From positions 4,368 through 68,367 of the forward strand of contig CABYZT010000003.1 in assembly GCA_902523515.1 (NCBI GenBank): a stretch of DNA of 64,000 nt, given 5' to 3'. This DNA is from an uncultured Pelagibacteraceae bacterium. Its GTDB lineage: Bacteria > Pseudomonadota > Alphaproteobacteria > Pelagibacterales > Pelagibacteraceae. The notes under the pieces were generated by a model that saw only the letters and a list, made by a program, of their open reading frames with translations, was not told the origin of the DNA and did not search any database. Shown piece after piece: positions 34,446 to 47,931 of this stretch. Numbering within the stretch: position 1 is the stretch's first letter; every line of letters begins with the position of its first letter. Position numbers and translations under genes: made by a program.

Positions 34446-35750
34446 ATGCAAAAAGAAGTAAAAAAGTCTTGGGCTCTATTTATTGGGATAGGAGTAATGA
34501 TGATTGCTCATGGATTGCAAATGCAAATTATGGGTATTCGGTCAGTACTTGAAGATTTTAGTGTTTTTACAACTGGTATCTTCATGTCTGGATATTATGT
34601 TGGCTACTTTATAGGCTCAAAAACTACTCCTAATTTTGTTTCAAAAGTTGGTCATATAAGAGTATTTGCTGCATTCGCTTCGCTTGCATCTTTAAGTGCT
34701 TTAGTAGCAGTTGTTTATGTAAATCCACTTATGTGGACAATTAGTAGATTTATAACAGGTATAAGTTTAGTTAGTTGTTATGTCGTTACTGAGAGCTGGT
34801 TAAACGATAGAGCAACTAATAAAAATAGAGGGCAACTATTATCTGTATATATGATGGTAATTTATTTTGGTTTAGCTCTAGGTATGCTTCTACTTAATAT
34901 AAGTAAACCTGAAGCTTATGAACCCTTTATTTTGGTTTCTGTTTTACTTTCTGTTGCTCTAGTTCCTATTTTATTAACAAAAAGACCCGCTCCTAAATTT
35001 AAAAAAATTGAAACAATAAGTATTCTAGAACTTTATAAAATCTCACCTCTTGGTTCTTTAAGCTCTTTCTTTACAGGAATAATTCATGCAGCTTTCTTTT
35101 CTTTAATTTCTGTTTATGCAACGATCGCAAAATTTACTTTATTTGAAACATCTATACTTTTGTTTGTTGCAACAATTGCTGGTGTTTTAGGTCAGGGTCC
35201 TATTGGTTATTTTTCAGATATTTTTGACAGAAGGAGAGTGATAGTCATAACAACATTTGGAAGTTCTCTTTTAGCATTAATTGCAATTTTAACTTCAAAT
35301 GATCCTATACAAAATATTTACTATATGGATGAATTTGCTTTTAGAAAAATAATCTTTTTTATAGCTGTTGGACTTTATACAAGTTTATGTCTACCATTAT
35401 TCTCACTTAACCTTGCACATACTAATGACTTTGTTCCAAAATCTAAATTTGTTGCTGCAGGTGGTGGACTACAATTAATTTTTGGTGTAGGAGCTATTAG
35501 TGGTCCTATTTTGTGTGCAATTTTCATGGAATGGTTTGGATTAAATGGTTTGTTTGTATTTTTAATTATAGCACACTCAATAATTGGTGTATTTGGTTTG
35601 TATAGAATGAAGGTTAGAAGTACTGTTGAAAATCCAGACTCAACATTCACACCAGTTCCAGCAACAATTACACCTGCTGGATTAGAATTAGATCCTGATG
35701 CGCCTGCAACACTAGATGAAACTCAAGTTAATGAAACTGCGAAAACTTAA
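34446..35750 (+). CDS. MFS transporter (YcaD-like)
   Basis: 12 TM helices, VGHIRVFAAF, ESWLN, RGQLLSVY, GYFSDIFDRRRVI. Confidence 0.88.
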   Translation: MQKEVKKSWALFIGIGVMMIAHGLQMQIMGIRSVLEDFSVFTTGIFMSGYYVGYFIGSKTTPNFVSKVGHIRVFAAFASLASLSALVAVVYVNPLMWTISRFITGISLVSCYVVTESWLNDRATNKNRGQLLSVYMMVIYFGLALGMLLLNISKPEAYEPFILVSVLLSVALVPILLTKRPAPKFKKIETISILELYKISPLGSLSSFFTGIIHAAFFSLISVYATIAKFTLFETSILLFVATIAGVLGQGPIGYFSDIFDRRRVIVITTFGSSLLALIAILTSNDPIQNIYYMDEFAFRKIIFFIAVGLYTSLCLPLFSLNLAHTNDFVPKSKFVAAGGGLQLIFGVGAISGPILCAIFMEWFGLNGLFVFLIIAHSIIGVFGLYRMKVRSTVENPDSTFTPVPATITPAGLELDPDAPATLDETQVNETAKT

Positions 35751-36196
35751 ATATTAGATAATTCTATTTTATCACCAATATTAATTTTTGAAGAAGTGAG
35801 AATTTGACACCTTAGTCCACCTTTCCTCATAAACTCTTTAAGTATATTTTTTTGGTCAAGCATTTCAGTTAAATGTCTGCATGGACGACATAATTCAATC
35901 GCTACTAGTTCTACATTTCCAACCTTAAGTTTTTTTCCAATTAAATCATTTAATTTAATGCCTTTTGTGACTACATTTCTTCTGAAATCTATATAAGGAA
36001 TATTAAGACCAAATTTAATATTATAGTCATCTATATTCTCAGACTCTATTAATGACAATTGATTGTAAGGATCATTAGACTCATGAAAATGACGATCTCC
36101 TACTATTCCTTTATTTGCTAAAACTTCAATTGAATGTACTTCCGAGATGGGTTGATTATTGTCAGCAGCAATTCCTAATTTAAATACTTCGGCCAT
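35747..36196 (-). CDS. MOSC-domain protein
   Basis: GIVGDRH, FRRNVVTKG, CRPC, GGLRCQIL. Confidence 0.88.
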   Translation of the reverse strand: MAEVFKLGIAADNNQPISEVHSIEVLANKGIVGDRHFHESNDPYNQLSLIESENIDDYNIKFGLNIPYIDFRRNVVTKGIKLNDLIGKKLKVGNVELVAIELCRPCRHLTEMLDQKNILKEFMRKGGLRCQILTSSKINIGDKIELSNI

Positions 36197-36243
36197 AAAT
36201 TATTGAAGAAATGATTAAGCTCATATAATCTTTTCAGAATAAT

Positions 36244-37068
36244 ATGACTTATCTATCATCAAATCAACTTAAACAGTATGAAGATCAAGGGTACATATCC
36301 CCTATTGAAGTTTTGTCTAGTAGTGAAGCATTAGAAGCAAGAAAAGAAATAGAATTAATTGAAAAAAAAATGCCCAGTGAAATAGATAATGCAGGAAGAT
36401 ATAATGTCCATCTAATTTCGCCAAAACTTGATTCGATTGTTCATAATTCAAAAATTTTAGATGCAGTAGAAAGTATTATTGGAAAAAATATCTTAGTTTG
36501 CAGTACTACTTTATTTATTAAAAACCCTAACGAGCAAGGTTTTGTAAGCTATCATCAAGATGCAAAGTACATAGGATTAGAGCCACACAATTGGGTTACA
36601 GCATGGGTAGCTTTAACAGACTCAAATGAAAATAATGGGTGTATGAAAATGTGGCCTAAATCACATTTAAATATTAAGGATCATAATGAGAAATTTAATG
36701 AAGGAAACTTACTTACTAGGGGTCAAACAGTAGAAAATGTGCCTGAAGATAAAGTTAAAACTATAGAACTTAAAGCTGGTCAAATGTCTTTGCATCATCC
36801 AAGAGTAGTACATGGATCAGGAATAAATAGAAGTAATGACAGGAGAATAGGATTTGTTATCCAAAGTTATATAAGCACAAATGTAAAACAAACTCTAGGT
36901 AAAAATAGTGTTCAGGTTGCAAGAGGTGAGGATAAATTTCATTATCATGAGGTTATACATAGGACTAACGCTTTAATGAGTGATGAAAGTATTTTACTTA
37001 GAAAAAAAGAAAATGATCACTTGCAAGAAATTTTTTATAAAGGTGCAAAACAAAAAGGTTCTTATTAA
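36244..37068 (+). CDS. PhyH-family Fe(II)/2-oxoglutarate dioxygenase
   Basis: HQD...H facial triad (YHQDAKY, VVHGSG), TAWVALTD, NGCM, RRIG. Confidence 0.88.
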   Translation: MTYLSSNQLKQYEDQGYISPIEVLSSSEALEARKEIELIEKKMPSEIDNAGRYNVHLISPKLDSIVHNSKILDAVESIIGKNILVCSTTLFIKNPNEQGFVSYHQDAKYIGLEPHNWVTAWVALTDSNENNGCMKMWPKSHLNIKDHNEKFNEGNLLTRGQTVENVPEDKVKTIELKAGQMSLHHPRVVHGSGINRSNDRRIGFVIQSYISTNVKQTLGKNSVQVARGEDKFHYHEVIHRTNALMSDESILLRKKENDHLQEIFYKGAKQKGSY

Positions 37069-38082
37069 TTGATGAAAAAAACGCTCAACCTTGGGGTAAT
37101 TGGAATAGATCATGGACATATTTTCGATATGTTAGATGAAATGATTAAAGAAGGTTGTAGTTGTAATTTTTTTTGGACAGAAGGAGATCCTTTAACTCTT
37201 CAGGAATTCAATAAAAAATACCCTAATGTTAAGAGAAAAGAAAATAAAGAGGAAATATTAAATGACTCGTCTATTGATATGATTTTAATATCTTCGATCC
37301 CTGTAGATAGAGCTGGTCATTCAATAGATGCATTAAAAGCTGGTAAAGATGTTATGGTAGATAAACCAGGCTGTACTACCCTAGATCAATTAAATAATTT
37401 GAAAAACACAGTTAAAGAAACTGGAAAAATATGGTCTGTAAATTTTTCTGAAAGATTTCATGTTGCTGCAGTTGCTAAAGCTGAAGAATTAGTAAATGAA
37501 GGTAAAATAGGAAAAGTAAAACAAACTATTGGTACAGGTCCACATAGGCAAGGAAACTATGAGAGACCAGATTGGTTTTATAATCGTCAGAGTTATGGAG
37601 GAATTATTACCGATATTGGTTCCCACCAAATTCATCAATTTTTAGTTTTTACAAATTCAAATCAAGCAAAAATCAACCATGCATTAGTAGAAAATACGAC
37701 AAAGAAAGATATGCCTGGTTTTCAAGACTTTGGTGAAGTGAACCTTACTGGTAATGGTGGGCACGGATATGTGCGCCTAGATTGGTTTACTCCAGATGCC
37801 CTTCCAACCTGGGGAGATGGAAGATTATTAATACTTGGAGACAAAGGTTTTATTGAAATAAGAAAATATACAGATTTAGCAAAATCAGAAAAAGGTAATC
37901 ATTTATTTTTAGCAAATAATCATGAAGTGAAACATATTGACTGCTCTAATGTAAAGTTACCCTACTTTAATAATTTAATAAACGATGTTTTGAACAGAAC
38001 TGAAACTGCATGTCCTCAAGAACTAACCTATCTTTCAATGGAACTTGCTATTAAAGCTCAGGAGCAGGCTGAAAAAAAATGA
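37069..38082 (+). CDS. Gfo/Idh/MocA-family oxidoreductase
   Basis: GVIGIDHGH, GKDVMVDKPG, GGIITDIGSHQI. Confidence 0.88.
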   Translation: MMKKTLNLGVIGIDHGHIFDMLDEMIKEGCSCNFFWTEGDPLTLQEFNKKYPNVKRKENKEEILNDSSIDMILISSIPVDRAGHSIDALKAGKDVMVDKPGCTTLDQLNNLKNTVKETGKIWSVNFSERFHVAAVAKAEELVNEGKIGKVKQTIGTGPHRQGNYERPDWFYNRQSYGGIITDIGSHQIHQFLVFTNSNQAKINHALVENTTKKDMPGFQDFGEVNLTGNGGHGYVRLDWFTPDALPTWGDGRLLILGDKGFIEIRKYTDLAKSEKGNHLFLANNHEVKHIDCSNVKLPYFNNLINDVLNRTETACPQELTYLSMELAIKAQEQAEKK

Positions 38083-39152
38083 AAAAATATCAAGTAGCTA
38101 TAATTGGAACTAATATAGGAGCAAAACATTTCGAGGATTTTCAAAAAATATCTCAGAGATTTAATGTTCACACCTTATGTGGTTTAACTAGAGAGTCTAT
38201 TGATAAAATATTAAAGTCAAATACAGAAACAAAAGTTTCTCTTAATTTTGAAGATGTATTAAAAGTTAAAGAAATTGATATAATTGATATTTGTCTTCCA
38301 CCTCACTTACATTTTTCTGCTTGTAAAAAAGCTATGGAGGCTGGAAAGCATGTAATTTGTGAAAAACCTTTAGTCTCTAGTCTTAAAGAAGTAGATGAAT
38401 TAGAAAAAATTAGCAAAGAAACTAGTAAAATTATTTTTCCGGTATTTCAATATCGATATGGTCTAGGATTTTCAAAGTTAAAAGCATTAATCAAATCTGG
38501 TTTGGCAGGAAAACCATTAATTGCATCTTTAGAAACTCACTGGAATAGAGGAAAAGATTACTATTCAAAACCATGGAGAGGAACCTGGAAAGGTGAACAA
38601 GGTGGAGCAATTTTAAGTCACTCTATTCATATTCATGATTTAGTTAGTATGATCCTGGGTCCTGTATCAAATGTTTTTGCAAAACTAACGACTAGAGTAA
38701 ATGATATTGAGGTTGAGGATTGTGCTGCTCTTTCAATTGAAATGGAAACTGGAGCTCTTGTTACAAGTTCTATTACATTGGGTGCTGCAAACGACACTAG
38801 TAGACTTAGATTTTGTTTTGAGGGATTAACTGCTGAGTCTGCTGCTTCTCCTGAAAAACCCTATAGCCCAGCTGATGATGAGTGGACTTTTTTACCAAGA
38901 GCACCAATAACACAAAGTCAAATTGAAGATGTATTATCTAAAGTAAAACATACTAAATCCTGGTATGCTGGTATGTTTGAGGAAATAGCAAATAAACTAA
39001 ATGGTTTGCCTAGTGAAGAGGTAACCTTAACGGACGCTAGAAATTCTTTAGAATTTGTCACCGCAGTCTATGCTTCATCAAGACAAAATAAAACAATTGA
39101 AATTCCAATAGATAAAAAAAATAAACTCTATAATTCCTGGCTCCCTAATTAA
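38079..39152 (+). CDS. Gfo/Idh/MocA-family oxidoreductase
   Basis: CLPPHLH, GKHVICEKP, WRGTW...GGAILSHSIHIHD, VED. Confidence 0.9.
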   Translation: MKKYQVAIIGTNIGAKHFEDFQKISQRFNVHTLCGLTRESIDKILKSNTETKVSLNFEDVLKVKEIDIIDICLPPHLHFSACKKAMEAGKHVICEKPLVSSLKEVDELEKISKETSKIIFPVFQYRYGLGFSKLKALIKSGLAGKPLIASLETHWNRGKDYYSKPWRGTWKGEQGGAILSHSIHIHDLVSMILGPVSNVFAKLTTRVNDIEVEDCAALSIEMETGALVTSSITLGAANDTSRLRFCFEGLTAESAASPEKPYSPADDEWTFLPRAPITQSQIEDVLSKVKHTKSWYAGMFEEIANKLNGLPSEEVTLTDARNSLEFVTAVYASSRQNKTIEIPIDKKNKLYNSWLPN

Positions 39153-39157
39153 ATTAA

Positions 39158-39895
39158 TTAATTTTTGAATGTTTTAAATATGCTTACAGATATAAAATAA
39201 ATATTTGAAACAACCCATAAAAACATTAAGAAAACCTCATATACTGGGTTTATGTTTAAATCCTTTATTAAAATTAACAAAATTGAAGTAATGAACCAAA
39301 ATATTGCAAAAATAATTGATAAACTTTTAAATTTTTTAACTCTTAAAGGATGAATGCATTTTAAAGGAGAAAATTTTAATAATATTAATAAAATTAAAAA
39401 TACTAAGTTAAAATTTTGGCTGGTGCCGAAAATATAAAAGTAAAGTACGATTACATTCCAAATAGCTGGAAAACCATTATAGTAATTATCATTTGTTAAA
39501 ATATTCAAATTCACATAAGAATAAATAGAAATAAAAATCAAAATTACAGGAATTAATAAAATAAACTGGTCTGGTACATACCTAAACCAATAAATCATTA
39601 CTGATGGTATTATAACATAGTTAAAAAAATCAATTATACTATCCAGCATTTTACCATCAATATGTGGTAAATTTTTTTTCACATTAAATTTTCTAGCTAA
39701 AGTTCCATCAACACTGTCTATTAAAAATGCAAACCCAAGCCAAAGAAAAGCCGCTTTTTGGTTATTATTCATAACAGCAATTAAAGCAAAAAAACCAGCA
39801 ACAATTCCTAATCCAGTCAATAAGTGAACAAGAATACCAAGAAATCTATCTTGTTTAAAAAGTTCATAGGTTTTAATATTTTTTTCTTTACTCAT
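39158..39895 (-). CDS. pcs: Phosphatidylcholine synthase
   Basis: Exact Pcs-type motif DGx2ARx8Px3Gx3Dx3D (DGTLARKFNVKKNLPHIDGKMLDSIID); VHLLTGLG, GFPAIWN, IHPLRV. Confidence 0.85.
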   Translation of the reverse strand: MSKEKNIKTYELFKQDRFLGILVHLLTGLGIVAGFFALIAVMNNNQKAAFLWLGFAFLIDSVDGTLARKFNVKKNLPHIDGKMLDSIIDFFNYVIIPSVMIYWFRYVPDQFILLIPVILIFISIYSYVNLNILTNDNYYNGFPAIWNVIVLYFYIFGTSQNFNLVFLILLILLKFSPLKCIHPLRVKKFKSLSIIFAIFWFITSILLILIKDLNINPVYEVFLMFLWVVSNIYFISVSIFKTFKN

Positions 39896-39908
39896 TTTTT
39901 TTCTAAAT

Positions 39909-40601
39909 TTATCTTGCCAATTTTATAAAAATATCTCCCATCCCACTTTGTAATTGTTCATCAGGCGTATTGTTTCTAAATTCACAAAATAAACCAGTCA
40001 CTTGATGATTATCTATTTTGACAATTTCGGATTTATCACAAGATTTAGCTTGATGGAATAGTCCAATTACTAGCCTATTATTTAGTTCTACAACTTGATC
40101 TTTTGATAAATTTTCACCATCACAAAAATAATCTCTATTTACTTGATTAGGAAAATTTTTTTTACCACACGGGTTTTTAATGGTTAAAACATAAAACTCT
40201 TTTTCTACATCTTTAAATTTATGTTTCATTTTATCAACTTTTGAATATTTCATTACATCACAAGAACATGGAATACAGCATCTGTAATAATCCCCACAAA
40301 TTTTTTTATTTGTACCAACTTCTTTTAAATATACTTTTTCAGGATCAGCATTAGGATCTATTAAAGAACCAGATACAGCACAATAAAGTTTATTAAACTC
40401 TACAAACTCTTGATAAGTAATGTCTTTATTTAATATATGTTTAAAAAATTTTGGACCAGCAGCGTTTCTATTTCTATCTGGAAATATCTTACTCCACTCA
40501 TTTACTAATTCTTGATAATAATTTCTTTCTTGTGCTTCTAAACTTGGGTTATGAGAAAAAACTAAAAATACGGTAAATATTATAAAAAAAAATTTTTTCA
40601 T
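39909..40601 (-). CDS. Secreted Cys-rich hypothetical protein
   Basis: Signal peptide; NRNAAG, YCAVSGS, CGDYYRCCIPCSCD. Confidence 0.75.
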   Translation of the reverse strand: MKKFFFIIFTVFLVFSHNPSLEAQERNYYQELVNEWSKIFPDRNRNAAGPKFFKHILNKDITYQEFVEFNKLYCAVSGSLIDPNADPEKVYLKEVGTNKKICGDYYRCCIPCSCDVMKYSKVDKMKHKFKDVEKEFYVLTIKNPCGKKNFPNQVNRDYFCDGENLSKDQVVELNNRLVIGLFHQAKSCDKSEIVKIDNHQVTGLFCEFRNNTPDEQLQSGMGDIFIKLAR

Positions 40602-40608
40602 AAAAACA

Positions 40609-42036
40609 TTAATTATTTTGTTTAATTTCCAATGTTTTATTTAATTCATTAATTTCAAAAGTGTTTTCTTCTCCATTTGTCCAAGTAACAATAATCTTAA
40701 TATTTCTCTCATTTTTTCGAATTCCGTAATGTGCCACTGGCTCCATTTGACACAAGTATCCTGAGCCTGAATCTATTGTTTTAGAATGAGTTCTTAAATT
40801 TGAAACAAGAGTTACAGTAGCACCTCTTGCTGGAGCACCGTGCATATTAATTGGTTTAATCCTTAAGAAATTATTTTTTTTTGAATTTGCCTTATATAAA
40901 GTTAAAGGCTGATAACCAGATTCTCCATGAGATATTAAAAGCTCAAGTATTCCATCACCGTCTATGTCAGCTACTGCAGCTCCTGTTCCTAATCCATTAG
41001 TTTCTAAAGCATTTGCAATATTTATTTCTTTGAACTCGCCATTATCTAAAATTTTAAATAATTTATTTGGCTCGCCAATATTATTCATGAATACTTCATC
41101 ATAACCATCATTATCAAAATCAGCAGAGATTACTGTTCTAATTCTCGATGGGGCGCTAAATTGTTTGTCAGCTATATCTACAAACTTATTATTTTTTAAA
41201 ACAAATGCTCGATGAGGCCCTTCCCAATTTGAAGTTAATATATCTAACCTACCTCTATAATAAATATCACTTAGCGCAGTTCCACGGCCGTTTTGAAAGG
41301 TATCATCAACAGCATAATCTTTCGCAAGTTCAACAAAATTTCCATTATTATTGTAATATAAAAAATTCTCCCCTCTTTCATTTGCAGCAAAAATATCAGA
41401 TCTTCCAGATAAAATATTACCTGAAATAACCGCTCTACCTCCAGTAATTTTATCAATACCTAGCTCTGAAGCTTTGTCTATTATTTCATTTCCATCTTTT
41501 TCATAAAATCTTGTAGGCCCTCCATAATTTGCAACATATATTCCATAAGCTCCATTTCCATTTCTATCTACACATACAACTGATCTACCTGCTGTAAGAT
41601 TTAAATTTTCCTGGTTTATTTCTAATTCAAATAAATCAAAAAATTTATTTCCATCAAAATCTAATAATCTGTCTGAATATCTTTTGTTTCCACTATATGT
41701 GTCTGTATTTAAAAAATATATTTCCTCATAACCATCCTGATCAATATCACACGATGCTACTCCTATAGTTTTACGATTTTTGTCTATAAATATACTTTGG
41801 TTAATTGAATTGAACAAAATACCCTTTTTGTGAGCTAAGGCTAAATTATTAAATCCAAATCCAGTTACAATAAATTCAAAATTTCCATCGTTGTTTACAT
41901 CTGAAACGGACACTCCATAACTTAATCTAGGTTGATTTTCTAATATTTGATAAGTTATATCTTCAAAGAAATCGTCTGACTTGGAATAATTAACAATATT
42001 TAAAAATATAAATAAAAATATAAATAATTTTTTCAT
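40609..42036 (-). CDS. CRTAC1-like secreted protein (FG-GAP repeats + ASPIC/UnbV domain)
   Basis: Signal peptide; repeated DxDxDG loops (DVNNDG, DIDQDG, DFDNDG, DIDGDG); DSGSGYLCQMEPVAHYG. Confidence 0.88.
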   Translation of the reverse strand: MKKLFIFLFIFLNIVNYSKSDDFFEDITYQILENQPRLSYGVSVSDVNNDGNFEFIVTGFGFNNLALAHKKGILFNSINQSIFIDKNRKTIGVASCDIDQDGYEEIYFLNTDTYSGNKRYSDRLLDFDGNKFFDLFELEINQENLNLTAGRSVVCVDRNGNGAYGIYVANYGGPTRFYEKDGNEIIDKASELGIDKITGGRAVISGNILSGRSDIFAANERGENFLYYNNNGNFVELAKDYAVDDTFQNGRGTALSDIYYRGRLDILTSNWEGPHRAFVLKNNKFVDIADKQFSAPSRIRTVISADFDNDGYDEVFMNNIGEPNKLFKILDNGEFKEINIANALETNGLGTGAAVADIDGDGILELLISHGESGYQPLTLYKANSKKNNFLRIKPINMHGAPARGATVTLVSNLRTHSKTIDSGSGYLCQMEPVAHYGIRKNERNIKIIVTWTNGEENTFEINELNKTLEIKQNN

Positions 42037-42136
42037 TTAATTTTCACTAGACTAAAAATTTAAAATTAAAACTGTTAATATTGGCATAGTTAATTTAGTG
42101 TAATTTCAATAGTAAATTTTAAAAATTTTATTAAAT

Positions 42137-42604
42137 ATGAATGATGTTAACAAAGCACCAAATGATTTTTTCAATAATTGGAATAAAATTAATTCTATGT
42201 CATATAGAAATGTTGTTGAACTACATGTTAAGAGAAGTAGCGAAAAAAAAATATTAGCTTTAATTCAATTTGAATTAGATCAGTTTTCAGAAAATGTTCA
42301 AAAGGATTTGGTTATTTCTGAAACGAGTTCTTTCTATCAAGAAATATCTAATCTTTTCAGAGACTCAAACTGGTGGTCAACCGCTACAGTAACAGATGCT
42401 TGTAAATATTATTTAAAATGTGCAAGAGATAATATTTCTCATTTTGAAGACTATGTAGAGGCAGATAGTGATTTATCCCAAAATGAAAAAAATGAGATAT
42501 TTGCCTTGTATCAATTGTGTACTTTATTTGTTTCTTGGAATGCTATTAAAGAAAAAAAGATCAGAGAAATTATAGATATTAGAAAAAGTTTATTTTTTAG
42601 ATAA
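42137..42604 (+). CDS. Hypothetical protein
   Basis: 155-codon ATG ORF in AT-rich DNA with no competing ORF; no motif recognised. Confidence 0.6.
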   Translation: MNDVNKAPNDFFNNWNKINSMSYRNVVELHVKRSSEKKILALIQFELDQFSENVQKDLVISETSSFYQEISNLFRDSNWWSTATVTDACKYYLKCARDNISHFEDYVEADSDLSQNEKNEIFALYQLCTLFVSWNAIKEKKIREIIDIRKSLFFR

Positions 42605-42615
42605 AAATCATCAAT

Positions 42616-42684
42616 ATGAATAAAGAAAATGCAAGTAAACTTTGGAAAATTATTCAAGAGGCTGGTGATTATTTGGGGTGCTAG
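42616..42684 (+). pseudogene. Truncated 5' copy (MNKENASKLWKIIQEAGDYL-GC*) of the ORF at 44458; left junction (attL-like) of the islet
   Basis: First 20 codons encode the same residues as 44458-44517; similarity stops after GATTATTTGG (42667-42676); TAG follows two codons later. Confidence 0.9.
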
Positions 42685-42690
42685 TGGTAC

Positions 42691-42730
42691 ACCCTACCTC
42701 ACACTACCTCACACTACTTCGCACTAGTTA
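42691..42730. repeat. Four tandem degenerate decamers
   Basis: ACCCTACCTC ACACTACCTC ACACTACTTC GCACTAGTTA. Confidence 0.9.
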
Positions 42731-42791
42731 TGCGGATAATTAAAATTTGATTGAAAATAATTCGCATTAAGACTCATCAATTTAAGCAAAA

Positions 42792-42829
42792 AACTATACC
42801 CCAAACTATACCAAGTTGAGATAAATCAA
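42792..42829. repeat. 38-bp structured site, copy 1 (two ACTATACC at 12-bp period + TTGA-N6-TCAA)
   Basis: AACTATACCCCAAACTATACCAAGTTGAGATAAATCAA; 33/38 identical to 44407-44444; palindrome extends to AAGTTGA-gataaa-TCAACTT. Confidence 0.9.
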
Positions 42830-42844
42830 CTTAATATAATATCT

Positions 42845-43297
42845 TTATTCTACTCGTGAATATTCTGATTTAACTCTACGTAAAGGTATGGAGGTTTCAA
42901 CTGAAGAAACACCATCTATTACAGTAAGTTTTTTTGTTAAAAAATCTTCAAATTCCTCAACGTCTTTAACCGCAATTCTAATTAAGTAATCCTTAGCACC
43001 TGTCATTAACCAACATTCAACAACTTCAGGAAAATTTAAAATTTTTTTCTCAAATTTATCAAAATTTTTTGATTGTTGTTTTTCTAAGCTTATAAATATA
43101 AATGCAGGAAATTTGTAACCAAGTGAAGTTTCATCAATATTTATTGAATAATTTTTAATTATATTGTTTTCTTCTAATTGGTTTATTCTTCTTGCGGTAG
43201 GAGCAATACTTAAATTTATTTTCTCACTAATATTTTGAAGTGTAGTTTTGCTGTTATTTTTAAGTATTTTTACAATCTTTTTATCAACTTCATCCAT
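42845..43297 (-). CDS. Lrp/AsnC-family transcriptional regulator
   Basis: MDEVDKKIVKILK...HTH...RRINQLEENNIIKNY; PEVVECWLMTGAKDYLIR. Confidence 0.93.
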   Translation of the reverse strand: MDEVDKKIVKILKNNSKTTLQNISEKINLSIAPTARRINQLEENNIIKNYSINIDETSLGYKFPAFIFISLEKQQSKNFDKFEKKILNFPEVVECWLMTGAKDYLIRIAVKDVEEFEDFLTKKLTVIDGVSSVETSIPLRRVKSEYSRVE

Positions 43298-43414
43298 ATT
43301 TTTAATAAATTTTATTAATATTTATAAAATATCTTATAAAATTTACTAATATTCAACTATAAATTAGTAATAATAGAGAAAATTTATTTTTAATTTCATG
43401 TAATTAATAATTAT

Positions 43415-44383
43415 ATGAATAAATCTAAATCATTTGATCCAATCTGGGTTCCAATTATTTCTCAATATCAAAACACAAAAAATTTAGAGCTAGATGAAAA
43501 GCTTATTCAAAAACATATCAATTGGTTAGACCCACATGTAAAACAATTCTTGGTATGCGGAACTACAGGAGATGGATGGAATTTAACTGATAAATTAATT
43601 TTAAATTGGTTAGATATATTAAATGATAACTCTTTAATCAAAAAAGATAACAAAATATTATTTGGAGCATTTGGAAAAACAACAGAAGATGTTCTAAGAC
43701 GTGCAGATATCATAGAAAGACATATAGATAAAAATGGATCATCTGCAGGTTTTTTTGGATTAACTTTATGTGCTCCCGTTGACGAAAACATCAAACAAGA
43801 AGGAATTATTTCACATTTTAAGCTTATCATTGAAAATACACATTTACCAATTTCTATCTATCAATTACCTCAAGTAGTAAAATGTAAAATTGAACCTGAA
43901 ACATTAAAAATATTAAAAGATAATTTTCAAGACAGAATTCAATTATTTAAGGATACTAGTGGTGAAGATGATGTTGTGAATTCTAGAATTAATTTTAATG
44001 ATTTAATATTTTTAAGAGGAGCAGAAGAAAATTATTTTGATCATTTAAAACCTAATGGGAAATATGATGGATTTTTATTAAGCTCAGCAAATTGTTTTGG
44101 TAAAATTTTAAGAGAAATTTATAATAATGTAGCAAAGGGTAATTTTAAAGATGCAGAAAAAATGTCTGAGGAACTAAGCGATATAATTAGAATTTCATTC
44201 TCAGAAGGTCAAAAACTAGATTTTGGAAACCCTTTTTCTAATGTAAATAAAGCATTTGCTCATGTCTTAATTAATAAAGATAATCTTAGTTGCAAAACAT
44301 GTTTTGACAGAAATATACCTAATGAATTTTTAAATGATATGTTTCTATTGCTATCTAAATATAACTTAAGAAAATCCTTATAG
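43415..44383 (+). CDS. DHDPS/NAL-family class I aldolase-like protein (divergent)
   Basis: CGTTGDG, PISIYQLP, FKDTSG with the Schiff-base Lys. Confidence 0.82.
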   Translation: MNKSKSFDPIWVPIISQYQNTKNLELDEKLIQKHINWLDPHVKQFLVCGTTGDGWNLTDKLILNWLDILNDNSLIKKDNKILFGAFGKTTEDVLRRADIIERHIDKNGSSAGFFGLTLCAPVDENIKQEGIISHFKLIIENTHLPISIYQLPQVVKCKIEPETLKILKDNFQDRIQLFKDTSGEDDVVNSRINFNDLIFLRGAEENYFDHLKPNGKYDGFLLSSANCFGKILREIYNNVAKGNFKDAEKMSEELSDIIRISFSEGQKLDFGNPFSNVNKAFAHVLINKDNLSCKTCFDRNIPNEFLNDMFLLLSKYNLRKSL

Positions 44384-44406
44384 GAATTTGTAAAATTTTG
44401 TGGGAT

Positions 44407-44444
44407 AACTATACCCAGGACTATACCAGATTGAGATAAATCAA
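44407..44444. repeat. 38-bp structured site, copy 2 (direct orientation)
   Basis: AACTATACCCAGGACTATACCAGATTGAGATAAATCAA, ending 13 bp before the restored ORF start. Confidence 0.9.
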
Positions 44445-44457
44445 GGTTTGAAGTAGT

Positions 44458-44685
44458 ATGAATAAAGAAAACGCAAGTAAACTGTGGAAAATCATACAGG
44501 AAGCTGGCGATTATTTGGTAGGACAATTACCGGACCATCCAAATCATCCTAAGGGAAGAAACCCATATGCTCATGTTGCCATTTGTGTAAAAAGTAAATT
44601 CAATGCAAGCTACAAAGATATCCCTGATGAAAAATATAATGACGTTATTGAATATATTGAATTTTTAAAACAAAATCCAAGTTAA
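44458..44685 (+). CDS. Small hypothetical protein (75 aa); intact target gene of the islet; C-terminus resembles the ORF6C domain
   Basis: Synonymous-only divergence from the 42616 copy indicates coding constraint; FNASYKDIPDEKYNDVIEYI. Confidence 0.82.
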   Translation: MNKENASKLWKIIQEAGDYLVGQLPDHPNHPKGRNPYAHVAICVKSKFNASYKDIPDEKYNDVIEYIEFLKQNPS

Positions 44686-45801
44686 TTATTGTTTTGGAAA
44701 ATAATCTTTTAGCTCACCTTCTCGGTAAACATCAGCTGTACAACAGTGTAGACCTCCGCCAAAAGCATAAGCATCTCTAAGTTCTACTGGTATAACTTCC
44801 ATTCCTAATTTATCCAGCTGTTCAGCTTGATATGTTTCACTTTTTTCCACACATACAGTCTTAGGGTCTAATACTAAAACATTCATTGATAGCCACGTTG
44901 ATGAATAACATAATGGTGGTGGTTCGTTATGTGCTGGTTGAGCACTATCAACAATTTCCCAACCATTGTCTTCAAATAATTTTCTTTGTTCCTTAGGAAG
45001 TCTTCTTTGTGGGTTATTGATAATTAAACCCTCTTTAATTGGGGTAAAGGTAGCATCAATGTGAATTGGATATGGATCTCCTGGGAAATTTACAGCATGT
45101 ACTCTGTGATCTTTATAGTGTCTCTTTAGCCAATCAATTCCTTTTAAATTAGTTGTAAATCCATGCTGAACAACTAGATCTTTTCCAAATCTCAATACAT
45201 CTGCTGCATCAAACAATGGCTCTTCTTCAGTAGTTACGAAATATTTTTTCTCAGTCCACTCTAATCTTTTTTGAACACCAATTTTATCTGATAAATAATC
45301 TTTTCTGTAATCTGCATCTGTTAATCTTGGCTTTGGAGCAGACTCGTGTCTCATGTTTGGATCTTGATTATAATAATCTTTTAAAAGTGGTCGGTAACAT
45401 AAATATTCAAACCAACGACAACGATAACTCATTGTTGCTTCTAAAATTTCGTTTCCTACTGTCAACAAAACATCTCTTGGAGGCATGCAGCCAAACATGG
45501 TTTCTGCTTCCCAATCAGGTGTAGATGTTTTTTGATTAAAATCTATTGGTGTTGGTCGATCAACTTTAATACCTCTTTTTTCAAGCATGTTTGAAAAGTT
45601 ATTTAATAATTCATTTGCTTTATCGACAGTATCTTTTGTTCTTGGTCCAAACTGACCTCGCATATCACTATCTTCTGGAACTTTTGCATCTAATGCTGGC
45701 TCTGGTGCTGGAATACAAGTTCCATCTGCTCTTCCAACAATTACATGTTTTAACGGATCCCACTCATTCCAACTGTTAACAATAGTTTTATTCTTGCTCA
45801 T
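44686..45801 (-). CDS. Amidinotransferase (arginine:glycine amidinotransferase-like)
   Basis: VNSWNEWDPLKHVIVGRA, MPPRD; Asp/His/Cys triad in FDAAD, HIDATF, GGGLHCCT. Confidence 0.88.
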   Translation of the reverse strand: MSKNKTIVNSWNEWDPLKHVIVGRADGTCIPAPEPALDAKVPEDSDMRGQFGPRTKDTVDKANELLNNFSNMLEKRGIKVDRPTPIDFNQKTSTPDWEAETMFGCMPPRDVLLTVGNEILEATMSYRCRWFEYLCYRPLLKDYYNQDPNMRHESAPKPRLTDADYRKDYLSDKIGVQKRLEWTEKKYFVTTEEEPLFDAADVLRFGKDLVVQHGFTTNLKGIDWLKRHYKDHRVHAVNFPGDPYPIHIDATFTPIKEGLIINNPQRRLPKEQRKLFEDNGWEIVDSAQPAHNEPPPLCYSSTWLSMNVLVLDPKTVCVEKSETYQAEQLDKLGMEVIPVELRDAYAFGGGLHCCTADVYREGELKDYFPKQ

Positions 45802-45806
45802 AAAGA

Positions 45807-47024
45807 CTAGTTTTTTATAATATTATGCTCAGGGCCGAAAGGAAATTTTGTAATATTCTCTGCTCCATCTTTGCCAATCACTAAAATATCATGTTCTCTA
45901 TATCCACCTGCACCAGGATTACCCTCTGGAATCATGATCATTGGCTCCATCGACACAACCATATTTTCCTCAAGAACAGTATCAATATCTTCCCTTAATT
46001 CTAAACCAGCTTCTCTTCCATAAAAGTGAGAAAGCATACCAAATGAATGTCCGTAACCAAATGTTCGATACTGAAGATAGCCAAGTTCAGCAAAAAGTTC
46101 GTTAAGCTCATGACAAATATCAGAACACTTCACACCTGGTTTAATTAATTCTAATCCACGCTTATGCACTTTAACATTAGCTTCCCAAGCTTTATGTGAA
46201 GCATCATCAGCATGATCTAAAAATAAAGTTCGCTCCAATGCAGTGTAGTATCCTGATATCATTGGAAAAGTATTTAAAGATAAAATATCTCCTTTAACTA
46301 ATTTTCTATTTGTCTTTGGATTATGAGCTCCATCTGTATTGATACCTGATTGAAACCACACCCAAGTATCCATGTACTCTGCATCTGGATAACTTTTAAC
46401 AATCTCTCTTTCCATTCTATCTCTTGCTGCAATTGCTACTTCTATCTCCGTATTATTTTCTCTAATATTTTTAACTATTTCTTCACCACCAATGTCTGCA
46501 ATTCTTGCACCATTTCTAATGATCTCTATTTCTTCGTTCGATTTAATCATTCTAAGTTTCATTAAATCTTTTGAAACATCACTAAACACAGAAAAAGTAA
46601 AAATAGACCCTATTTTTTCTCGCATATCTAAAGTGACATGATCATTTTCAATTCCAATATTTTTTGGAGGTTCATCTCTTCCAATAATTGAAACAATGGC
46701 CCTTAAAAAATTATCTCTTTTCCAATCGGTATAAATAACGTTATCACAATGGGATCTTCGCCATGGTTGGCTTGCATCAATGTTAGCTGAAATTGTTGAG
46801 ATTTTATTTTGAGTAATCACACATCCGTATGGTCTACCAAAGGAGCAATAAATAAAACCTGTGTAATATGCAACGTTATGCATTGAGGTTAAGATGAGCA
46901 TATCAAGACCATTTTGATCCATCACTGATCTAAGTTTACTTACTCGATCTTTATACTCTTTATCTGTAAATGGTAATTTTACTTTTTCACCATTTTTAAG
47001 TTCAAAAAAATCTGGTCGTTCCAT
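45807..47024 (-). CDS. Creatinase (creatine amidinohydrolase, M24 fold)
   Basis: KNGEKVKLPF, YCSFGRPYG, WFQSGINTDGAHNP, YTALERT, RTFGYGHSFG, SMEPM, GYREHDIL. Confidence 0.92.
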   Translation of the reverse strand: MERPDFFELKNGEKVKLPFTDKEYKDRVSKLRSVMDQNGLDMLILTSMHNVAYYTGFIYCSFGRPYGCVITQNKISTISANIDASQPWRRSHCDNVIYTDWKRDNFLRAIVSIIGRDEPPKNIGIENDHVTLDMREKIGSIFTFSVFSDVSKDLMKLRMIKSNEEIEIIRNGARIADIGGEEIVKNIRENNTEIEVAIAARDRMEREIVKSYPDAEYMDTWVWFQSGINTDGAHNPKTNRKLVKGDILSLNTFPMISGYYTALERTLFLDHADDASHKAWEANVKVHKRGLELIKPGVKCSDICHELNELFAELGYLQYRTFGYGHSFGMLSHFYGREAGLELREDIDTVLEENMVVSMEPMIMIPEGNPGAGGYREHDILVIGKDGAENITKFPFGPEHNIIKN

Positions 47025-47025
47025 A

Positions 47026-47931
47026 TTAATTTAATGCTATATATCTTTTGTTCCATCGCATTATGAGACTATAGTAAAATATAGATACAAATAGGAAAAA
47101 TCCACCGACTATAGTGTTAGTGGATGGTACTTCATTAATTCCAAATAATGGCAGCCAAACCCAAAAAATTCCTCCTACAACTTCAGTTAAAGATAATAGA
47201 GTCAATTCTGCTGCTGGTATTGCTTTAGATCCAATTGAATATAAAATTAACCCAAAACAAACTAAGGTCCCATGCAAAGAAAACAAAGTTCCATTATAGC
47301 TAGATGAAAAGAAAACTAAGTTGTTTGATAAAATCATAATTGTTGCAAACACAAAACAAAAAAAACCTGCGAAAGCTACAGTTGTGAATTTTGGTGTTTC
47401 TTTTCTCCATCTTAAAGTTACAGAAAAAACTGAAAAACCAATAGATGATGTTAATCCAAAAACAAAACCAATTAATGATTTTTCACCAGTATTATCAAGA
47501 GCCATAATGATAATACCAACTGTTGCAATTATGATTGAAATCCAAACATTAAGAGAAATTTTTTCTTTTAAAAATAAAAATGCCAACAATGCAGTAAAAA
47601 AAGGCATTGCTGCTAAACATAATAAAGTAACTGCAGCACTAGTATTTGTAATTGAATAAATAAATGTAATCATAGCGATCCCTAATCCAGATCCACCGAT
47701 TACTCCAGATAAACCTATTTTATAATAGTTTTTGTAAAAATTTTTTCCTTCCTCGAAAAATAAATAAAGATTTAATAAGATGAAAATTGTTAAGCCTCTG
47801 CCAAAAATATACTGCCAAGGTACCAATTGAGGATTATCCATATATCGAACTACTAATGGACCAAACGACCATAATAGACCGGCAAAAAGTACAACAGGGA
47901 TGGCTATTCTTGGATTTCGCAGCTCTAACAT
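47026..47931 (-). CDS. DMT/EamA-family transporter
   Basis: About 10 TM helices, FLKEKI, PAAELTLLSLTEVV; 1 bp upstream of the creatinase gene. Confidence 0.85.
   Translation of the reverse strand: MLELRNPRIAIPVVLFAGLLWSFGPLVVRYMDNPQLVPWQYIFGRGLTIFILLNLYLFFEEGKNFYKNYYKIGLSGVIGGSGLGIAMITFIYSITNTSAAVTLLCLAAMPFFTALLAFLFLKEKISLNVWISIIIATVGIIIMALDNTGEKSLIGFVFGLTSSIGFSVFSVTLRWRKETPKFTTVAFAGFFCFVFATIMILSNNLVFFSSSYNGTLFSLHGTLVCFGLILYSIGSKAIPAAELTLLSLTEVVGGIFWVWLPLFGINEVPSTNTIVGGFFLFVSIFYYSLIMRWNKRYIALN

Follow-up and report, generated by a model that had tools for sequence, protein, structure and literature searches.

A SAR11 cargo cassette without an integrase, inserted in a small protein-coding gene and probably mobilised by the integrase of satellite-like elements

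A stretch of 64,000 nt from an uncultured Pelagibacteraceae bacterium (GenBank assembly GCA_902523515.1, contig CABYZT010000003.1, positions 4,368 to 68,367; hereafter the window, meaning the whole stretch) carries, at 42616–44518, a two-gene islet that interrupts and at the same time restores a small gene of 75 codons, here called ORF75 (ORF, open reading frame). We consider the islet, with a probability of roughly 0.8, to be an integrase-less cargo cassette inserted in codons 19–21 of ORF75 by the integrase of ~9-kb SAR11 elements. Its ends match those of these helper elements, and a 98.8–99% identical copy lies at an unrelated site; the cassette therefore likely moves by means of a borrowed integrase. 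After integration the left side retains a dead stub while the gene on the right is complete, so the site is reusable and cassettes stack in tandem.

Results

The islet is delimited by direct repeats (42616–42676 and 44458–44518) that match at 54 of 61 nt, the seven differences being synonymous third positions in codons 5, 9, 12, 13, 14, 15 and 17, just as a first-pass annotation of this DNA had described them. BLAST against the 1.2-Mb genome gave the pair an E-value of 1.5e-16 and found no third copy. The left copy encodes MNKENASKLWKIIQEAGDYL-G-C and ends at a stop two codons past Leu20, and the right copy is the start of the intact ORF75. Directly after the left core come 10-bp tandem repeats, and a further repeat pair, which the annotation had not noted, lies inside the islet (42792–42829 and 44407–44444), giving a left arm of 153 bp (42677–42829) and a right arm of 37 bp (44408–44444). 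No right-arm motif was found upstream of the left stub, nor were additional degenerate stubs or arms found elsewhere in the window or the genome. The annotation had called the islet integrase-free, with only an Lrp regulator and a gene resembling those of the DHDPS family between the repeats; Pfam agrees: of the 65 ORFs in the window with at least 90 aa, none matched an integrase or transposase family. In the genome, which is 89.6% complete, the sole tyrosine recombinase found is a 317-aa gene on contig C2, and there was no match to a resolvase. There is no tRNA at the islet site.

By its geometry the left copy is the displaced one; codon G+C gives no such indication. The annotation had seen a host left copy and a foreign right copy in the G/C content of the seven variable sites (one in the left copy, five in the right), a contrast that does not hold for the family, where displaced copies average 3.83 (n = 47) and right-arm copies 3.85–3.90 (n = 78). 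Intact ORF75 copies without an arm average 2.53 (n = 36, including another family), and the left copy of the window is the only one of the 47 displaced copies with a single G/C. Nor is the replacement a recoded one, as had been proposed. The differences are allelic variation under selection for the ORF75 protein, the empty allele of genome G018 has a 5′ end identical to the right copy of the window, and the replacement fragment is not constant among copies of one cassette. Non-synonymous changes are introduced by some elements as well (for example MSPEKSQKLW in the helper L101, described below).

ORF75 was found in 46 of 61 related genomes and in 17 of the 20 near-complete ones. Its homologues fall into 5,684 protein clusters, with one listed match named Candidatus Pelagibacter. 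The protein has no match in Pfam (including PF10552), PHROGs or NCBIfam. Its predicted fold consists of three helices (predicted local distance difference test score 92) with a weak ORF6C-like resemblance (Atlas score 0.91; Foldseek template-modelling score 0.66 at E 0.95), and its best PDB match (Z 7.0, root mean square deviation 2.9, 64 residues aligned) is within the range of common helical bundles. In 23 genus loci ORF75 has 17 different upstream neighbours and only four downstream, which marks it as the edge of an additive island. Extra 20-codon stubs occur in several genomes, three of them in tandem in G026. The annotation had anticipated an empty allele, and G018 provides it: a 155-aa ORF is followed directly by intact ORF75. 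A second, distant integrase (28–31% identity) targets ORF75 near codon 42 in the opposite orientation (L236:393–500 and L102:9823–10050, G685) and duplicates the 3′ end (134 of 135 nt), so that ORF75 is a target of two integrase lineages.

The annotation had also predicted larger elements with the same ends and a tyrosine integrase. A search with the replacement-fragment pattern matched two viral-database records, L101 (9,070 bp, classed as having direct terminal repeats) and L216 (9,003 bp, with an 81-nt terminal repeat). In L101 the attachment (att) site of the element, attP, reads right motif, 13 nt, replacement codons, core and 10-bp repeats, followed by a 568-aa integrase whose first codons are the left arm motif; L216 has the same layout, and in both records the intact attP directly precedes the integrase. 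The distance from core to arm is 116 bp in the islet and 117 bp in three helpers. Both records encode a primase-helicase and a RusA-like gene; among the L101 proteins, no PHROGs structural family was found in the 12 scanned, and no conjugation family among those scanned. Three of 401 family genomes have an integrase of at least 65% identity, in each case right after an ORF75 stub and flanked by arms, core and a 20-codon replacement, and nine further genomes hold relatives 26–35% identical, several of them beside tRNA fragments. In G200 a cassette at 466 kb and a helper at 469 kb stand in tandem. Some helpers are larger, of 21–22 kb, and carry large metabolic blocks (L231–L234, in G537 and G200); judged from N-termini, these may include cytochrome bd-like and sulfur-related genes in G200 and CoA-ligase and hydratase-like genes in G537.

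For the integrase 352 relatives were found, and an alignment of 30 homologues shows R383, K410, K504 (at the usual His position), R507, H531 and Y541 to be invariant in all of them; the protein matches phrog_1 (E 8e-23), and the top Foldseek matches of its model are tyrosine recombinases. Matches to arm-binding domains are weak (HPI, HAI7 and P4-like; 3ju0, 3jtz and 3rmp; Foldseek E 0.008–0.07). One might instead attribute the movement of cassettes to the 317-aa recombinase of the host, acting in an integron-like or dif-module-like manner, since no other tyrosine recombinase was found in the genome. This is very improbable, because the attP to which the islet ends correspond belongs to another enzyme, the 568-aa integrase, and the agreement extends even to the arm motif in its first codons.

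Copies of this very cassette are found in other genomes. Its DHDPS-like gene occurs in eight of 401 genus genomes. In G143 the cassette sits at ORF75 behind another cassette and is 99.2% identical to that of the window, as against 91–94% for the flanking genes. In G188 and G697 it is 98.8% identical and lies between purK and a gene of the SRAP family; the neighbouring genes of G188 are only about 69–77% identical to those of the window's genome, and both G188 and G697 keep an intact ORF75 elsewhere. One metagenome contig shows the same purK left junction, and purK and the SRAP gene stand together without the cassette in seven of 19 loci examined. At this second site attL ends in the element 7-mer TATTTGG and attR carries the host 7-mer TTATTAG; in the native site, read in relatives and in a duplicate present in G697, the same flanking sequences enclose the host 7-mer. 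The swap indicates exchange at the left edge of a 7-bp overlap, with three mismatches tolerated. The annotation had placed the breakpoint in the shared core; by comparison of the two sites, crossover most likely takes place within the final 7 bp of this core, not across the whole 10 bp. Further genomes contain related genes without arms: the cargo gene pair at 92% identity (G200 and G698), and distant homologues (G106 and G144).

Two other explanations can be weighed here. The islet might be what is left of a decayed satellite, no longer mobile itself and spread only when the island around it undergoes homologous recombination. The copies at ORF75 (G143 and the metagenome loci L117 and L170) could have spread in this way, copies differ more in their replacement fragment than in their cargo, and the ends are eroded in G697. 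Nevertheless we regard a relic as unlikely, since a 98.8% identical copy is joined precisely to a site without homology, and the rest of the genome that carries it is only about 75% identical; this implies at least one recent site-specific event on the integrase-less unit. An assembly chimera of two strains joined at the repeat, a caveat of the annotation, might be suspected of a 23-contig assembly from a diverse population, the more so as no metagenome contig spans the whole stretch. It is scarcely credible, given that the unit with both ends recurs in independent genomes (G143 and G188) and metagenome contigs (L117 and L170) and that the cassette was detected in 20 runs from 13 studies.

The islet belongs to a family of similar units. 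Each stub is followed by a conserved block of ~153 bp made of 10-bp tandem repeats, a spacer and a 37-bp motif, which itself consists of two repeats 12 bp apart. In a search that scored at most two candidates per genome, 63 of the 301 genomes of the genus had a left-arm match with E <= 0.001, and 44 had one with E < 1e-12; a metagenome scan gave at least 115 left-arm loci. The 139 distinct left arms lie after an ORF75 site (96), at a terminator-like hairpin (16), at other sequences (22) or at a contig end (5). Where enough downstream DNA was available (104 left arms), three were followed by a full integrase, one by a truncated integrase and 100 by none. Complete units number 55 and range from 227 to 3,537 bp, the upper figure being limited by the extent of the loci examined. 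Among them, 42 have both motifs, no integrase and, in line with the annotation's expectation of other cargo between the same ends, 37 cargo families; five are empty 227-bp scaffolds with a single arm motif (L100/L237 in G171, L118, L136, L190 and L203), which may have arisen by deletion between the two motifs or may serve as scaffolds that capture cargo.

Arm motifs were scored with position weight matrices. The left and right motifs of one cassette are mismatched at 2.4 of their 16 variable columns, a figure that rises to 7.2 +/- 0.4 on shuffling, and none of 10,000 shuffles over the 37 cargo families reached the observed value, a result whose significance is overstated because related sequences are not independent; units without a scored right motif were left out of this test. 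A TATAGGAT-type pair precedes the right motif in 22 of 39 cassettes and in none of 42 control windows. Early plus-strand ORFs, present in 29 cassettes, start 36–38 or 56 nt past the left motif in 19. In many cargo genes the first residues are MKKLLGIVVLG and the distance to the left motif is constant, and ahead of the right motif there is often a dead stub of the corresponding DNA; right ends of this kind are also present in G685 and in front of a tRNA-Leu fragment (L227). This signal-peptide DNA was considered as a second recombination site and set aside, as nothing beyond the counts (left end of 9 of 37 cassettes, right end of 8, both of 4) speaks for it; the window's own genome has one copy, at C2:136258.

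The same arms are also found at a terminator-like inverted repeat (L238 in G171, L241 in G066, L112 and other metagenome loci), where Rfam gave no match at the alternative target sites. In G171 they stand three times in tandem, each bringing a substitute for what lies upstream of the hairpin, and L112 has a truncated integrase there. Such arms likely belong to a sister integrase with another core specificity. In a few left junctions (L239 in G200 at 274 kb, L240, L233 and L148) the host side corresponds to the right-hand ORF75 core site in reverse complement. As far as sequence comparison goes, these junctions would support inverted core sites and suggest inversions within arrays. The site in L239 is symmetric; on comparison only, this and the 7-bp swap at the second site point to a short overlap between inverted cores with arm repeats on both sides, the arrangement of lambda/P4-type heterobivalent tyrosine integrase systems.

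The features of the islet are collected in Table 1. The Lrp/AsnC-type cargo protein scores below the NCBIfam cut-offs for named equivalogs. The DHDPS-like protein is not the housekeeping DapA; its stop codon falls inside the right-end motif of the cassette, and a separate member of the DHDPS family, 26% identical to it, is encoded on contig C2. Upstream of the islet, between a conserved MFS gene and ORF75, the window holds variable genes (35750–42604: MOSC, PhyH, two GFO oxidoreductases, a CDP-alcohol transferase, an FG-GAP/ASPIC protein and unknowns) that are older island content, with no recognisable arms left. Downstream (44686–47931), EamA transporter, creatinase and amidinotransferase-like genes converge on ORF75.

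Table 1. Features of the cassette and its target in the window
Feature	Position	Strand	Evidence or remark
Displaced ORF75 5′ end, codons 1–18; dead stub, host side of attL	42616..42669	+	Empty allele of G018 joins the same upstream gene to intact ORF75
attL 7-bp overlap TATTTGG, putative crossover region	42670..42676	+	Identity with the G188 second-site copy begins at 42670; native second site in G697
Core-proximal left arm, 10-bp tandem repeats	42677..42727	+	Identity to helper attP: L216 49/51 nt, G540 48/51, L101 41/51
Spacer typical of integrase-less units	42728..42792	+	Stands where helpers have the integrase promoter and start codon
Left arm-type motif: two repeats 12 bp apart, then GAGATAAA	42793..42829	+	In helpers the integrase gene opens with this motif (~14 codons)
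Cargo: Lrp/AsnC-family regulator, 150 aa	42845..43297	-	PF01037, E 3.8e-22
Cargo: DHDPS/NAL-family aldolase-like protein, 322 aa	43415..44383	+	PF00701; GTTG, Y149 and K179 motifs
Inner right-end motif, degenerate TATAGGAT units with a 10-bp period	44379..44406	+	Present in cassettes; absent from five helper-type right ends inspected
Right arm-type motif	44408..44444	+	Variable letters agree with the left motif of the same cassette
13-nt leader and replacement 5′ end (codons 1–18), element-supplied	44445..44511	+	Layout as in attP of L101 and L216
attR 7-bp overlap	44512..44518	+	Comparison with the second site
ORF75, restored target gene, 75 aa	44458..44685	+	Conserved SAR11 protein

Discussion

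The att anatomy, the cognate integrase, the tandem arrays, the empty allele and the second-site copy described above can be joined in a simple scheme. The integrase would bind the paired arm motifs through an N-terminal arm-binding domain and cut across a 7-bp overlap between imperfect inverted core sites. The 10-bp repeats may bind a directionality factor; they are likely excisionase or accessory-protein sites, by analogy with the arrays of Xis sites in lambda and L5. On entry of a helper into the cell, the cassette would be excised as a circle of ~1.84 kb, alone or together with an adjacent helper, might travel in phage particles or vesicles, and would reinsert at ORF75 or at sites that resemble it, for example the SRAP gene's 3′ end beside purK. 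Homologous recombination would in addition spread filled alleles and swap synonymous 5′ ends.

Several observations weigh against mobilisation by the helper integrase. Arm binding and the length of the overlap are deduced from sequence comparison, and the arm-binding family Arm-DNA-bind_3 (PF13356) is recognised in only five of 30 integrase members, at best with E 6.9e-5, below the cut-off. No helper integrase was found in G000, G143, G188 or G697 (65–92% complete). The left-arm pattern had no match in viral contigs, and the attP junction pattern was found in L101 only. Eight of the 55 complete units lack a scored right motif, and in G697 the right arm has been lost, a duplicate of the purK 3′ end and a native site standing in its place (L274:2477–2575) and leaving the cassette stranded; together these suggest that many copies are decaying. 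The relatedness of the sequences in the shuffle test counts here too. Finally, the circle joint from right end to left arm, which the annotation had proposed to look for and which would resemble a tandem junction, was not among the joints listed for eight runs, covering contigs only, a result that does not show it to be absent. Joints that skip the cassette (42606 to 44456, in five of the eight runs) were considered as excision products and rejected: their short side is only 28 nt and other letters lie between, so that they are taken to be other alleles.

If the helper integrase is responsible, the cassette may move in trans or be carried in cis, and both routes would leave the structure seen in G188. 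According to the latter, the cassette is a passenger resembling a cis-mobilisable element (CIME), which moves only when a helper is integrated alongside; the composite excises and reinserts, and the helper later leaves. This alternative differs from our preferred reading in route only, shares its integrase mechanism, and is counted within the probability given above. The tandem of cassette and helper in G200 is such a composite in place, helper loss from a composite would give the structure in G188, cis-mobilisation is documented for CIMEs (PMC5704250), and the cassette has no recognisable replication or packaging gene. Against it, both arms are kept at helper spacing with matched variable letters, and the units have a conserved spacer and inner motifs of their own, which suggests selection on each unit as a substrate. 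We consider the passenger route a serious possibility that falls somewhat short of an even chance.

The system works like a CIME at a dusA-type, 5′-replacing site that is served by a satellite resembling VEIMEs, integrative mobile elements that are encapsidated in virions. With CIMEs (PMC5704250) it shares the loss of integration genes, the retention of attL and attR and tandem accretion at one target; indeed, the islet has no integration or transfer genes and both its ends match the helper attP. It differs in that the parent is an integrase-primase, satellite-like element and not an integrative and conjugative or integrative and mobilisable element, in that the units are stereotyped (227 bp when empty, up to 3.5 kb) with a conserved spacer, inner motifs and matched arm letters, and in that one unit lies at a second site without a helper. 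In dusA-associated islands (PMC4482086) a tyrosine integrase likewise targets a protein-coding gene at its 5′ end and brings a substitute for it, the old 5′ end marking the outer boundary; there, however, the integrase is universal and the target is dus, whereas the islet lacks an integrase and occupies ORF75.

The helper is comparable to VEIMEs (PMC9618062) and Pelagibacter integrase-primase elements (PMC11876622), being likewise ~9 kb long, with integrase, primase-helicase, RusA-like gene and terminal repeats, and integrating in Pelagibacter. Like VEIMEs it is small and combines an integrase with replication genes but no full virion set; it is known here from its sequence and terminal repeats. 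The accessible parts of those reports describe neither integrase-less derivatives nor such a protein-coding target. As in tycheposons and additive flexible islands (10.1101/2020.12.28.424599; PMC11796062; PMC10872708), successive integrations leave partial target copies and build an additive island, although in those systems, as far as the available text goes, the targets are tRNA or tmRNA genes, the units encode an integrase and integrase-less material is a remnant. CR2-sul2, an att-bounded sub-unit excised and integrated by the integrase of the island GIsul2 (PMC9376610), offers a parallel for the mechanism, but is a single resistance unit of an enterobacterial island and not a family of minimal cassettes with dozens of cargoes. 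In six nosocomial species, according to the accessible portion of one report, only 6% of att-delimited islands lack recombinase vestiges and integrative elements are almost all larger than 4 kb (10.64898/2026.01.13.699239), in contrast with the 0.2–3.5 kb of the present units. A literature search found no account of an ORF75 target or of integrase-less SAR11 cassettes with arms, with subscription papers and supplements, VEIME datasets included, lying outside it and possibly listing such elements. What the locus adds is one cassette at two unrelated sites in distant genomes, together with a mapped overlap.

SAR11 islands rarely hold mobile-element genes despite very large pangenomes, and for the islands of its reference genome PMC11796062 reports one integrase. 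The annotation had likewise regarded the lineage as poor in mobile elements, a view at odds with the VEIME satellites and 585 recombinase-associated mobilised Pelagibacter regions already published (PMC9618062; PMC11876622). The present locus shows how a helper-dependent route is built, with a protein-coding attB open to reuse, a full set of arms but no recombinase, and an identified cognate integrase; one and the same cassette, moreover, occupies two unrelated sites in genomes whose identity is only about 75%. As the att sites and the integrase are defined to the base, the mechanism is testable in E. coli, and the pair is a candidate integration tool for SAR11 genetics.

Cassettes are present in 44 of 301 genus genomes and helpers in 2 of 136, a ratio of about ten to one. 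One may imagine, tentatively and as something possible rather than probable, an evolved SAR11 system akin to miniature inverted-repeat transposable elements (MITEs), in which scaffolds of ~230 bp, reduced to the att arms of the satellite and equipped with their own motifs for the start and end of expression, would capture single genes, a code of arm letters would pair them with integrase variants, and helpers would move them in trans between species. If this is true, MITE-like cassettes would be a main route of gene turnover in the most abundant bacterium of the ocean.

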